From: a virus
Lineage: Duplodnaviria; Heunggongvirae; Uroviricota; Caudoviricetes
Length of the DNA: 15,352 nt
Virus record (IMG/VR): IMGVR_UViG_2558860274_000010
Span: 1 to 15,352 of that record
Reading direction: 5' to 3' (one strand)
A program made the translations under genes and the position numbers. Below the pieces are notes generated by a model. The model was not told the DNA's origin, made no database searches, and was given only the letters and a program-made list of their open reading frames with translations. Below, one piece after another: positions 2,291 to 6,919 of this stretch; within the stretch, counting starts at the first letter, position 1, and every line of letters begins with the position of its first letter.

Positions 2291-3340
2291 ATGATTAATA
2301 CTGTAAAAATATCCAGTTGTGAGTTAATCAACGCTGATTGCCTGGAATTTATCCAGACCTTACCGGAAAACTCTGTCGATCTGATAGTCACAGACCCGCC
2401 ATACTTTAAAGTGAAGCCCGAGGGCTGGGATAACCAGTGGGAGGGCGACGATGATTACCTGAAATGGCTGGACCAGTGTCTGGCGCAGTTCTGGCGGGTA
2501 CTGAAGCCTGCCGGAAGTCTTTACCTGTTCTGTGGTCATCGCCTGGCATCTGACACCGAAATCATGATGCGTGAGCGCTTTAATGTGCTGAACCACATTA
2601 TCTGGGCGAAGCCGTCCGGACGCTGGAACGGGTGCAATAAGGAAAGTCTGCGGGCGTATTTTCCGGCAACAGAGCGCATTCTGTTTGCAGAACATTATCA
2701 GGGACCGTATCGCCCGAAAGATGATGGCTATGTGGCACAGGGGCGCGAGCTAAAACAGCACGTCATGGCCCCGCTGATTTCTTACTTTCGTGATGCGCGT
2801 AAATCACTGGGAATAACGTCAAAACAGATAGCGGAAGCCACCGGAAAGAAAAACATGGCTTCGCACTGGTTTGGTACCAGTCAGTGGCAGTTACCGAACG
2901 AGGGTAATTACAACAAATTGCAGGCGTTGTTTGCGCGTGTTGCGGCAGAAAAACATCAGCGCGGGGAACTGGAAAAGCCACACCACCAGCTGGTCAGCAC
3001 ATACAGTGAGCTGAACCGGCAGTATACGGAACTGCTGAGTGAATATAAAAATTTGCGGCGGTATTTCGGTGTGACGGCGCAGGTTCCGTACACCGATGTC
3101 TGGACGCATAAACCGGTGCAGTACTATCCAGGGAAACATCCGTGCGAAAAACCGGCAGAAATGCTGCAGCAGATAATCAACGCGAGCAGTCGTCCGGGAG
3201 ACCTGGTTGCAGATTTTTTTATGGGTTCAGGTTCAACGGTAAAAGCGGCGATGGCACTGGGGCGTTGTGCGATTGGTGTTGAGCTGGAGACAGGACGTTT
3301 TGAACAGACAGTCAGGGAAGTTCAGGATTTAATCGTTTGA
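2291..3340 (+). CDS. DNA methyltransferase (N6-adenine or N4-cytosine, beta-class), apparently orphan
   Basis: 349-aa ORF with catalytic DPPY motif near the N-terminus (IVTDPPYF) and an FxGxG AdoMet-binding motif near the C-terminus (FFMGSGST). No restriction endonuclease partner is evident nearby. Confidence 0.8.
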   Translation: MINTVKISSCELINADCLEFIQTLPENSVDLIVTDPPYFKVKPEGWDNQWEGDDDYLKWLDQCLAQFWRVLKPAGSLYLFCGHRLASDTEIMMRERFNVLNHIIWAKPSGRWNGCNKESLRAYFPATERILFAEHYQGPYRPKDDGYVAQGRELKQHVMAPLISYFRDARKSLGITSKQIAEATGKKNMASHWFGTSQWQLPNEGNYNKLQALFARVAAEKHQRGELEKPHHQLVSTYSELNRQYTELLSEYKNLRRYFGVTAQVPYTDVWTHKPVQYYPGKHPCEKPAEMLQQIINASSRPGDLVADFFMGSGSTVKAAMALGRCAIGVELETGRFEQTVREVQDLIV

Positions 3341-3389: not shown

Positions 3390-3465
3390 GGCCCTTTAGC
3401 TCAGTGGTGAGAGCGAGCGACTCATAATCGCCAGGTCGCTGGTTCAAATCCAGCAAGGGCCACCA
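3390..3465 (+). tRNA. ileZ: tRNA with anticodon CAT (Ile2/lysidine type or Met; ileZ-like)
   Basis: Manual cloverleaf: acceptor GGCCCTT/AAGGGCC, D-arm GCTC/GAGC, anticodon loop CTCATAA, T-arm GCTGG-TTCAAAT-CCAGC, encoded CCA at 3463-3465. Confidence 0.85.
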
Positions 3466-3562: not shown

Positions 3563-3639
3563 GCGTTGTTAGCTCAGCCGGACAGAGCAATTGCCTTCTA
3601 AGCAATCGGTCACTGGTTCGAATCCAGTACAACGCGCCA
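3563..3639 (+). tRNA. argO: tRNA-Arg, anticodon TCT (argO-like)
   Basis: Manual cloverleaf: perfect acceptor GCGTTGT/ACAACGC, anticodon stem ATTGC/GCAAT with loop CTTCTAA, T-arm with TTCGAAT loop, encoded CCA at 3637-3639. Confidence 0.85.
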
Positions 3640-3776: not shown

Positions 3777-4103
3777 ATGGTTTTTTCAGTATTAAATATT
3801 TATCATTCATATGGTGTGGGTAGAGTGAATATTGATGAGGCGTCGGGGTGTTTCATCCTTAGGCAGCGTATTGATATAGTCAATGCAGCACGAGCAAAGG
3901 CCTTCAGCCGTTTGACAGTTTTGTTCTGTACTCCTGATCGTCTTTTGGGAAGAGACGTTATTATTCTGAATAGTGATGCTATACAGAGGGTTTGCGATGA
4001 GTTCATGGTTGCTAATTCAGAATTATTTGCTCTTGTTCAGGAGTACAACAGAATAGCCAGGACCTGTGGTATGGATGAACTTCGGATTACTCATCTGGGG
4101 TAG
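3777..4103 (+). CDS. hypothetical protein (108 aa from first ATG), unknown function
   Basis: Open frame 3750..4103 (TTG at 3750, first ATG at 3777) in AT-rich DNA right after the tRNA cluster. A TTGTCA-N17-TAAGTAT promoter-like element lies at 3721-3749. No convincing Shine-Dalgarno and no recognisable family. Confidence 0.3.
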   Translation: MVFSVLNIYHSYGVGRVNIDEASGCFILRQRIDIVNAARAKAFSRLTVLFCTPDRLLGRDVIILNSDAIQRVCDEFMVANSELFALVQEYNRIARTCGMDELRITHLG

Positions 4104-4494
4104 ATACATATCTGGATTATCACCTGTTACGGTAAAAAGTGATTGCTTACTGTTTTTGTGAATGGCATTGCAGCAGCCGGATAATGTCAGTGCTGGCTGA
4201 CGGTGTGCTGGTGGCGGGTGTGGTGGTTGTTGCTTTCCCGTTGCTGAAAAAGAAAACGCCAGACTGTTAGCCGGGTATCAGTTAGCGGGAGAAATTTTTA
4301 AATACTTCACAATTCAGGCGGTTGACTGTTGTCTGGTTTGCGGGGAGTTTGTTAAAAGAAACTGGCATGGTGAATCCCCCTGTGCGGTGGGGCAATCAGC
4401 GAGTAGGTATATGGGATAATCGCGGATTCAGGTGCTGGTACTGAATTCACCGGGAGGCACCCGGCACCATGCAATGGCACATAGCGCCACTCTC

Positions 4495-4524
4495 CAGCCC
4501 CTCTCCGGAGGGGCTGTTTATATT
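4495..4524 (+). terminator. intrinsic terminator-like hairpin
   Basis: 9-bp stem CAGCCCCTC/GAGGGGCTG with loop TCCG, followed by a T-rich tract (TTTATATTGATTTT) on the + strand. Lies immediately 3' of the stop of the minus-strand ORF 4518..4886. Confidence 0.4.
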
Positions 4525-4886
4525 GATTTTGTCAGATGTGAGTAAACTCCTGATGGACTTTGTTGTTTTAGTCCATAAGGACATATTTGCAGAGTGCAAC
4601 GGTTATTAAAGCATTCATTCAATACGTTATCTGTATTTGTAGGGCATTCCTGGCTGTTTTTGATTAAATTCCAGAATGTTTTATTGAATGGTACTACGTT
4701 GTAAATGGTTACAGGTAGCACTTTGTTATTGAGCATGATGCCTGTGTGAGTCAGTGTAAATATACTTTCAGGAGGTAAGAAAGCATCCGATTGATACCAG
4801 ATTATTAATTTTATTTTACTCCATATGACTGAAAAAGATATTCCGCATGATGGCTGGATAACTGTATCAATCACAATCCACTTCAT
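4518..4886 (-). CDS. hypothetical protein (122 aa), AT-rich cargo gene
   Basis: Minus-strand ORF with a good ribosome-binding site (AAGGAAAGTAA then ATG). Low GC compared with the flanks; no recognisable family or signal peptide. Confidence 0.4.
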
Positions 4887-5186
4887 TTACTTTCCTTGTT
4901 TATGCCTTGCTGGTGATGTTCTGAAAAGTATAAATGATATTTTTGAATTAAACCATAGAGCAGAATTATTTTTCTGATGTTGTTTATTGTTTATTTAAAT
5001 ACAGGGTGGTTTATATCTCGTCTTGTAGTTTATCCATGCATATCTGCTTGATAATCAGGTTTTTATTTAAGGTATGGTTTTGTGTTTTTTCTGTATAGAC
5101 TGGCCCCCTGAATCTCCAGACAACCAATATCACTTAAATAAGTGATAGTCTTAATACTAGTTTTTAGACTAGTCATTGGAGAACAG

Positions 5187-5552
5187 ATGATTGATGTCTT
5201 AGGGCCGGAGAAACGCAGACGGCGTACCACACAGGAAAAGATCGCAATTATTCAGCAGAGCTTTGAACCGGGGATGACGGTCTCCCTCGTTGCCCGGCAA
5301 CATGGTGTAGCAGCCAGCCAGTTATTTCTCTGGCGTAAGCAATACCAGGAAGGAAGTCTTACTGCTGTCGCCGCCGGAGAACAGGTTGTTCCTGCCTCTG
5401 AACTTGCTGCCGCCATGAAGCAGATTAAAGAACTCCAGCGCCTGCTCGGCAAGAAAACGATGGAAAATGAACTCCTCAAAGAAGCCGTTGAATATGGACG
5501 GGCAAAAAAGTGGATAGCGCACGCGCCCTTATTGCCCGGGGATGGGGAGTAA
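5187..5552 (+). CDS. insC: IS2 transposase OrfA (InsC)
   Basis: 121 aa beginning [21 protein letters not shown]..., preceded by GGAGAACAG. Matches IS2 InsC as recalled. Confidence 0.85.
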
Positions 5553-5722
5553 GCTTAGTCAGCCGTTGTCTCCGGGTGTCGCGTGCGCAGTTGCACGTCA
5601 TTCTCAGACGAACCGATGACTGGATGGATGGCCGCCGCAGTCGTCACACTGATGATACGGATGTGCTTCTCCGTATACACCATGTTATCGGAGAGCTGCC
5701 CACGTATGGTTATCGTCGGGTA
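5510..5722 (+). pseudogene. insD: IS2 orfB (insD) 5' fragment, truncated after codon 71
   Basis: [30 protein letters not shown]...PTYGYRRV matches the InsD N-terminus. The expected continuation is replaced from 5723 by unrelated sequence in the same frame. Confidence 0.7.
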
Positions 5723-6919
5723 CAGAAGAACCCGAAAAATGTGTTGCTGGCGGTGTGCTGGATGCAGGGAGAGTTTGACATGAGCGCCGCCACCCACGCA
5801 CAGCAACCTGCGCTGTTTACAGCCATGCTGACACAGTTTCGTGCTGACCTCTCCGTGTTTAACGCGCAGTGCCATGGTGGCAGTGCTGCAGATGTGCCGT
5901 GGATTTGTGGTGACACGACGTATTACTGGAAAAATACATACGCTACCCAGTACGACACCGTGTACGGCGGGTATAAAAACAGGGAGAGTGAGGGCGTTTA
6001 TTTTGTGCCCTTCATGACAGACGGTAACGGCGTCAATACCGCCACTAACGCGCCGGCAGAAGATCCGGATATTCCGGCATCAGGATATTACGGTGCGGCA
6101 TCGAGAACGAATGGAAACCAGGTATCATCAAACCGCCCGACACATTTCAGTTCATGGGCGCGCAGGAGCATTATTCCGGATCGTCTGGCAACCGCTATTC
6201 TGAACGCAGCCGGGCGCACCTCAGCCTTCATCAGTGGTAAGGCACCGGAAATCAAACCCTCGCCCGGCGGCAACACGCCATCGGGTCCGTCTGCAGATAC
6301 GTCCGTTCGCACAATCTCCCTGCTGCCGGCAGCCGGAGAGGCTGCTGCGCAGGGCTGGAGCATTAAGGATGGCGGAATTCAGTTGTCAGATGGTGTATTT
6401 AAGATCACCAAGCAGAGCAATAAAACCTGGTCCCTGACGCATCCGGTGGATGACGCAATTACCCTGCTGACACAGGGCGGCAGACTGACCTGTAAGTTCC
6501 GCCTGTCAGGCGCACTGACCAACAATCAGTTCGGGCTGGGGATTTATCTGTATACGGATGCTCCCGTTCCTGATGGTGTGGCGATGACGGGTACCGGTAA
6601 TCCGTTCCTGATGTCGTACTTCACTCAGACCACTGACGGCAGAGTGAATCTGATGCATCACAGGAAAGCCGGAAACACGAAGCTGGGGGAGTTCGGCGAT
6701 TACGGTAACGACTGGCAGACGCTGGAGCTGGTGTTCACCGCCGGCAGTGCCACGGTTACTCCGAAACTGAATGGAGTGGCTGGCCCGGCATTCCAGGTTA
6801 TAAAAGACGGTCTGACACTGGGACTGAATGCGCTGACGCTGACGGATGTTACAAAAAATGCAGCGTATGGCGTTGAGATAGAAAGTCTGGTGCTGGAGAT
6901 AAATGCACCGGCAGCATAA
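5723..6919 (+). pseudogene. 3' portion of a prophage nanS-p/YjhS-family sialate O-acetylesterase gene, 5'-truncated and fused in frame to the IS2 orfB stub
   Basis: Translation from 5723 ([19 protein letters not shown]...[12 protein letters not shown]...YGGYKN...[20 protein letters not shown]...[14 protein letters not shown]) parallels the C-terminal half of E. coli NanS/YjhS as recalled, followed by a ~250-aa extension. The N-terminal part of the gene is absent. The position between the tRNAs and the holin matches where Stx phages carry nanS-p. Confidence 0.6.

Follow-up and report, generated by a model that had tools for sequence, protein, structure and literature searches.

A small DUF3927 gene and an STnc100-family RNA with a predicted pseudoknotted core in the late region of an Escherichia coli lambdoid prophage

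Results and discussion

Gene content of the late regulatory region

The stretch of DNA analysed here (15,352 nucleotides of IMG/VR virus record IMGVR_UViG_2558860274_000010, hereafter the window) represents the late regulatory region of a lambdoid prophage of E. coli. Its + strand carries, in this order, genes for RusA (795-1160), a DUF1133/Q-like protein (1157-1711) and a DNA methyltransferase (2291-3340), the genes for tRNA-Ile2 (3390-3465) and tRNA-Arg-TCT (3563-3639), and a gene for an RNA of the STnc100 family. The tRNA at 3390-3465 has the anticodon CAT and is read as tRNA-Met by ARAGORN and as tRNA-Ile in RefSeq; the equivalent tRNA in Stx phages is of the ileZ type. An ORF of 108 amino acids (3777-4103, +) follows the tRNA genes and shows a full-length match (1-108 of 108, E = 8.5e-69) to the PHROG phage family phrog_2873. 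It has no annotation in the RefSeq record of a 99.8%-identical prophage (L003), and we regard it as a flanking gene separate from the RNA.

Genes for an esterase (nanS-p-like), a holin, a lysozyme and a terminase come next in L003. Given these esterase and lysis genes, the interval is the slot in which Stx phages carry stxAB, that is, the lambdoid 'moron' slot between the Q-like antiterminator and tRNA genes on one side and the esterase and lysis genes on the other. The STnc100 copy of the window thus lies in the late region of a lambdoid prophage, a context shared with the Rfam family.

The initial annotation described positions 4104-4524 as having no ORF with a canonical start. This has to be corrected, as an ORF with a GTG start at 4139-4270 (+) encodes a small hydrophobic protein of 43 amino acids (VIAYCFCEWHCSSRIMSVLADGVLVAGVVVVAFPLLKKKTPDC) that scores 95.6 bits against Pfam PF13064, DUF3927 (gathering cut-off 25, E = 1.7e-27), with residues 2-43 aligned to profile positions 7-53 of 53; RefSeq places WP_000562553.1 at the same position in L003. 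A match to PHROG 1470 ('TciB-like') covers residues 12-40 only. The C-terminal 32 residues of the peptide, a range that includes these positions, align with TciB of phage JLK-2012, and the N-terminus is unlike that of TciB. Half of the seemingly empty stretch is therefore a small annotated gene. An obligate operon of DUF3927 and the small RNA (sRNA) can be ruled out, as the ORF is located upstream in only 23 of 131 occurrences of the STnc100 family.

Beyond the RNA lies a convergent gene of 122 codons, iraM (4518-4886, - strand), which scores 161.6 bits against NCBIfam NF007393 (cut-off 121). This prophage-borne iraM encodes an anti-adapter protein, which stabilises RpoS. At 4552, L003 has T and the window has G; the difference removes a stop codon and lengthens IraM from 111 to 122 amino acids, and because of the lost stop codon the 3' end of iraM overlaps the terminator tail of the sRNA. 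Similarity to related prophages ends at 5096, just before the esterase gene. The sequence from 5097 begins with TAGACTGGCCCCCTGAATCTCCAGACAACC, which we take to be an IS2/IS3-family end, and contains an HTH_Tnp_1 transposase ORF (5142-5552) followed by a 469-aa ORF with a DUF6645 domain (5510-6919). This sequence is probably an insertion sequence located upstream of, or inside, the esterase region.

An STnc100-family sRNA gene

The window has a single strong match to Rfam, namely to RF02076 (STnc100) at 4336-4525 on the + strand, with 130.5 bits against a gathering score of 47. The match spans model positions 1-206 of 206 (E = 5.3e-29 for the whole window, 1.7e-30 for 4100-4600). Within 4100-4600 no further Rfam family appeared even at E<=5, and a search of the window for a second, diverged STnc100 copy found none. 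Both STnc_100 qPCR primers published in PMC12370729 match the window, and the core motifs UGGUGAAUCCCC and CACCGGGAGGCACCCGGCACCA are found at 4368-4380 and 4448-4469, joined by the closing helix. The small RNA is thus already catalogued, as a member of a known and widespread family. The predicted mature sRNA has about 160 nt (4365-4524, +), as delimited by the Rfam match, promoter geometry and the start of the related RNA PasD1, and its folding z-score is -3.29. A tRNA-like fold was rejected by eye on arm lengths and loops, and ARAGORN reports nothing there.

The initial annotation had noted a GC-rich 9-bp hairpin followed by a T-rich tract, and had considered it compatible with a small RNA. 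Both the hairpin (4495-4516, +; seven G-C pairs, a 4-nt loop, then TTTATATTGATTTTG) and the small-RNA option are borne out, the hairpin being the predicted terminator of a full-length STnc100-family gene. As a whole, the predicted intrinsic terminator (4495-4531, +) comprises this strong hairpin and an interrupted U-tract, with the tail UUUAUAUUGAUUUUG, and corresponds to Rfam model positions of about 166-206. In relatives, the same hairpin is directly followed by UUUUU or UUUCUU, and compared with these the U-tract of the window is poorer; two relatives (L020 and L113) share the hairpin and diverge directly after it. Terminator-like sites are by themselves not above chance here (three found against 2.2 +/- 1.5 expected from shuffles of 2.3 kb); what lends weight to this site is its position at the 3' end of a full-length Rfam match.

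A + strand frame open for about 75 codons (about 4197-4425) had also been reported and was recovered as 72 codons at 4201-4416, with a stop codon at 4417-4419 and GTG 4387 as the first in-frame start. The frame exists, but we consider it extremely unlikely to be the decayed protein-coding gene that had been proposed. No family evidence was found for it, and it overlaps the Pfam-supported DUF3927 ORF out of frame and also overlaps the Rfam-supported RNA. Moreover, the variation among relatives under this frame consists of compensatory changes in paired helix positions, and of indels that are not multiples of three, rather than of a codon pattern, and the sole RefSeq-annotated ORF under the RNA is an antisense pseudogene fragment. 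We therefore judge the open frame at 4201-4419 (+), which lacks an early start, to be a product of chance.

Predicted promoter and 5' end

A -35 hexamer, TTGTCT (4329-4334, +), and an extended -10 element, TGtTAAAAG (4350-4358, +; TG at 4350-4351, hexamer TAAAAG at 4353-4358), are predicted upstream of the RNA, together forming an element whose position is conserved among relatives. Of 73 distinct upstream regions, 52 have their best sigma-70 match at a place where the -10 hexamer ends 7-10 nt ahead of the T of TGGTG, the spacer being 18 nt in most cases; shuffled upstream sequences gave a flat distribution with no favoured position. An ungapped logo anchored on UGGUG has TAAatT at -13 to -8 and T at -36 (80%). 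The block TTTnTTAAAAnA is invariant in an alignment of the window with the copy of phage 933W, PasD1 and PasD2, and the published coordinates of PasD1 (NC_011601, 1060260-1060432) begin exactly at the G of GCAUGGUG. The 5' end of PasD1 corresponds to the first base of P0, the closing helix described below. From the position-conserved sigma-70 element and the PasD1 5' end we infer that the window sRNA has its own sigma-70-type promoter at TTGTCT/TAAAAG and starts near G4365, which would give an RNA of about 160 nt. The promoter would then occupy the first ~29 positions of the Rfam model. The position of the 5' end may be off by a few nucleotides, as the outer pairs of the closing helix, 4365:4472 and 4366:4471, form in only part of the family. 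Given that TAAAAG is without the usual final T and that the U-tract is interrupted, promoter and terminator may both be weaker than in relatives. A sigma-54 promoter in GGCACCCGGCACC or TGGCACATAGC was rejected, as the spacing does not fit by eye.

These observations bear on whether the RNA derives from a longer transcript. The initial annotation had offered the 3' UTR of the 3777-4103 ORF as an option, and we do not favour it as the main reading, as the DUF3927 gene separates the two and a promoter of conserved position is predicted for the RNA itself, although some read-through from upstream may occur. A related possibility is that most of the RNA arises from a 3' UTR or by processing, being cut from DUF3927 transcripts or from Q-antiterminated pR' transcripts, with the hairpin serving as operon terminator. 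The RNA and the late operon are on the same strand, a DUF3927 gene lies 40-65 nt upstream of the RNA in the window and at both PasD loci, and some outer pairs of the closing helix, as well as the Rfam model, reach upstream of the predicted start. Such an origin is nevertheless unlikely in our view: DUF3927 is upstream of only a minority of the 131 family occurrences, the promoter-like element keeps a similar distance to the core in most of the distinct upstream regions, and the estimated 5' end of PasD1 agrees with the start that the promoter predicts. Both routes could operate side by side.

A conserved 5' domain with five helices and a pseudoknot

The conserved 5' domain of 108 nt (4365-4472, +) is predicted to form a five-helix junction made up of P0, the closing helix (4365-4372 with 4465-4472), P1 (4376-4380 with 4386-4391, 4388 being bulged), P2a (4392-4394 with 4421-4423), P3 (4424-4431 with 4441-4448) and P4 (4450-4454 with 4460-4464), all on the + strand and with almost no unpaired junction nucleotides. 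We assessed this structure on a structure-blind MAFFT alignment of the core of 54 distinct relatives, and compared it with shuffles and with slid controls. The relatives were drawn from 120 viral contigs with the core motif, which reduce to 54 representatives below 93% identity. Pairing was found in 88.8% of cells for the proposed structure, against 78.1% for shuffles and 38-45% for slid controls; the covariation score was 0.338, against 0.150 for shuffles (none of 500 reached the observed value) and 0.06-0.09 for slid controls. Compensatory changes are found in all eight pairs of P3, and pair 4367:4470 of P0 covaries, being G-C in 24 sequences and A-U in 22. RNAalifold independently finds P0, P1, P2a and P4. 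The P4 helix and the inner half of P0 never vary, and this invariance needs to be interpreted cautiously, as it is partly forced by the search pattern through which most of the sequences were collected; both are, however, also unchanged in all seven members found with a different pattern that lacks P4.

A further interaction is predicted between AUCAGCG (4395-4401, right after P2a) and UGCUGGU (4433-4439, in the P3 loop), which together would form a pseudoknot (4395-4439, +). In an alignment-free test, the longest helix had a mean of 6.74 bp between cognate segments and of 4.76 bp between non-cognate segments, and none of 2000 permutations reached the observed value; the corresponding duplex energies are -9.7 and -5.4 kcal/mol. 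Complementarity is kept through 39 distinct sequence pairs (for example CCAGUC/GACUGG, CUGGUGU/ACACCGG, AAAUCUG/CAGAUUU and ACUGGAUA/UAUCCAGU), with changes on both sides in six of the seven pairs. By eye, the pairing is also found in 933W, in PasD1 (AAUGAUC with GAUCAUU) and in seven genomes from an unrelated search pattern. Neither the RF02076 structure line in the cmscan output nor preprint 10.64898/2026.05.13.724894 includes the pseudoknot. Covariation thus supports all of the variable helices together with the pseudoknot, as predicted from sequence comparison.

Across the 54 variants, invariant blocks are found in junctions, in loops and even in helices (GGUGAAUC, the GC of the P1 loop, the CGC before P3, and CCGGGAGGCACCCGGCACC); free variation is seen in the P2 region, in the terminator stem and in the linker that connects P0 to the terminator. 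Within the RNA, the window departs from L003 at a single position, 4388 (U in the window, A in L003). As 4388 is the bulged P1 nucleotide, which varies freely across the family, the change is probably neutral.

The linker (4473-4494, +; AAUGGCACAUAGCGCCACUCUCCA, 22 nt) is the least conserved part of the family, and the predicted fold leaves the CUCUC of its CUCUCC stretch unpaired. This makes it a candidate seed region, and a likely one by analogy with PasD1 and PasD2, whose RIL-seq-derived seed UGUGAG (PMC8550237) maps to the equivalent linker.

Relatives of the window RNA

RF02076 was first listed for Salmonella, with no function recorded in Rfam. The window copy agrees with this family in core motifs, terminator position and prophage late-region context, whereas its P2 region, linker and tail are its own. 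Our description departs from the Rfam model in that we read the first ~29 nt as promoter, include a pseudoknot that the printed consensus does not have, and place P1 in another register.

The copy in phage 933W lies 75 nt after stx2B, scores 207.7 bits against RF02076 and faces the convergent anti-sRNA AsxR. It is identical with EcOnc27/sRNA103, which is reported as documented by Hfq-CRAC and Northern blot (Tree 2014 and Gruber & Sperandio 2015, as cited in PMC7873438 and PMC12711010), and overexpression of which is reported to raise fimZ and espA transcript levels (PMC7873438; PMC12711010). These indirect effects of sRNA103 overexpression are the only pointers to targets known for STnc100-type copies. 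The window RNA shares with EcOnc27/sRNA103 of 933W and Sp5 the promoter layout, the core and a site between tRNA and esterase genes. However, stx2B precedes the 933W copy, which is paired with AsxR, whereas stx and AsxR are both missing from the window, where DUF3927 lies upstream and iraM is the convergent gene. As the P2 region, linker and terminator sequences are unlike those of the 933W copy, the targets probably differ. In strain EDL933, 11 Rfam STnc100 copies are transcribed, mostly with low ribosome coverage, and one of them, STnc100_4, was detected by Northern blot (PMC5331693).

Downstream of stx2B, a T/C SNP (+90) and a deletion of T (+103) have been reported as predictive of HUS (PMC12711010). 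On 933W (our contig L247, about 2292-2306; the coordinates may be off by 1-2 nt), +90 falls in the inferred extended -10 element (TTTGTTAAAAAA) and +103 in the TTT between the -10 element and the start of STnc100/EcOnc27. If so, these are variants of the predicted 933W promoter and not changes in the RNA.

PasD1 and PasD2 of EPEC E2348/69 are abundant, Hfq-dependent sRNAs identified by RIL-seq and Northern blot (PMC8550237), and a 2026 preprint links them with STnc100 (10.64898/2026.05.13.724894). They have in common with the predicted window RNA the promoter block, the 5' end at GCAUGGUG, P0, P1, P2a, P3, the pseudoknot and a DUF3927 gene just upstream. PasD differs in being without P4 and in having a linker of ~47 nt with UGUGAG, whereas the window copy has P4 and a shorter linker without UGUGAG. 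At the PasD loci, no match to RF02076 reaches the threshold. By sequence, the window copy is of the STnc100 type and not of the PasD type.

Two further kinds of phage sRNA resemble the window RNA in part. The AsxR/AgvB dyads of EHEC prophages are convergent pairs of Hfq-binding sRNAs located in the interval from the late promoter to the lysis genes (PMC7873438). These anti-sRNAs share the genomic niche of the window RNA, yet no Rfam match to AsxR (RF02703) or AgvB (RF02702) is found within the window, where the convergent partner is replaced by a protein gene, iraM. The counterpart of phage lambda 6S RNA in Stx phages is StxS. It is a short pR'-tR' transcript that doubles as an Hfq sRNA (PMC7873438) and resembles the window RNA in being a short, terminated + strand RNA of a lambdoid late region. 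StxS, however, arises at pR' directly after Q, whereas the window RNA has its own predicted promoter ~2.6 kb downstream of the Q-like gene, with the methyltransferase gene, two tRNA genes and two ORFs in between.

Proposed mode of action

We consider it probable that the interval holds two genes of the moron slot, one for a 43-aa DUF3927/TciB-like peptide and one for an STnc100 sRNA that acts in trans. Under this model, the sRNA would be made in the lysogen from its own sigma-70 promoter, starting near G4365 and ending at the 4495-4516 terminator. It would be bound by Hfq and act by base pairing, as its relatives do, with the conserved 5' domain as a stable scaffold and the single-stranded variable linker (4473-4494, with CUCUCC) as the seed, an arrangement of fixed scaffold and swappable seed. 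Upon induction, Q-modified late transcription would read through the sRNA gene.

The arrangement of a structured domain followed by an intrinsic terminator, upstream of esterase and holin genes in many phages, might also be taken for a cis-acting element, either an attenuator or a leader of the riboswitch type, by which read-through into the downstream esterase and lysis genes is controlled. We regard this as very improbable. The next gene in the window, iraM, is convergent, which leaves nothing to control in cis, and in 933W it is the convergent sRNA AsxR that comes next; in addition, the linker between domain and terminator varies in length (22 nt in the window, ~47 nt in PasD1) as well as in sequence, so that no conserved switch is visible.

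The trans-acting model assigns the 5' domain the role of a scaffold. The elaborate invariant core exceeds what a typical Hfq sRNA needs, however, and this hints at an additional function. One could go further and propose that the five-helix pseudoknotted domain is the functional part, binding a specific protein or ligand or resisting nucleases, and that base pairing is secondary. Invariant blocks persist across 54 variants that otherwise differ freely, including in all members found with the pattern without P4; the junction has hardly any unpaired nucleotides and is joined by a pseudoknot; and tandem arrays of the domain occur. On the other hand, the invariance of P4 owes something to sampling, and PasD, which is without P4, is still an abundant Hfq-dependent sRNA with a linker seed. 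On balance, we hold a primary role of the domain to be improbable. We put forward only tentatively, as a possibility, that the 108-nt domain is a distinct structured-RNA module with a function of its own, which lambdoid phages shuffle together with interchangeable seed linkers, sometimes in tandem arrays. If this were true, the HUS-associated variants downstream of stx2 would fall in the promoter, and not in the body, of such an RNA.

Tandem arrangements are seen in IMG/VR, where ten loci (L009, L013, L021, L022, L026, L041, L060, L070, L082 and L088) have two or three STnc100 cores on the same strand within 250-1000 nt, often ~485 nt apart. As P2, P3 and the linker are unlike in each copy of such a locus, we interpret these as tandem arrays of diverged sRNA genes.

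Distribution and annotation

The 203-nt stretch 4329-4531 is present in 2777 of 5426 complete E. coli genomes, at up to 11 places per genome. Among the records listed, it is nowhere annotated as RNA, the sole annotation beneath it being an antisense 'hypothetical protein'. In RefSeq this is a pseudogene fragment that lies over the sRNA, at 4355-4480 (- strand) in window coordinates and at equivalent loci; at PasD1, RefSeq has an antisense ORF of 132 amino acids. Both antisense ORFs are probably annotation artefacts that result from an unannotated RNA gene. A scan of genome contigs with the 14-mer TGGTGAATCCCCCT returned 120 loci, of which seven are true members and the rest mostly chance matches in unrelated phyla; it therefore says little on the taxonomic range beyond a few Enterobacteriaceae.

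STnc100 is among the most abundant Rfam sRNA families and adjoins stx2 in Shiga-toxin phages. What we add to it are modest and testable refinements: a refined 5' end together with its predicted promoter, a pseudoknot within a five-helix core, and a proposed layout of scaffold plus linker. The identification of the gene by itself closes an apparent annotation gap, in that an RNA gene of about half of complete E. coli genomes sits under nothing but an antisense pseudogene fragment in RefSeq. The placing of the 5' end near the closing helix, the conserved promoter and the pseudoknotted core with a swappable linker point to nucleotides for mutation, and clinical variants near stx2 may alter the expression of the RNA rather than its pairing.
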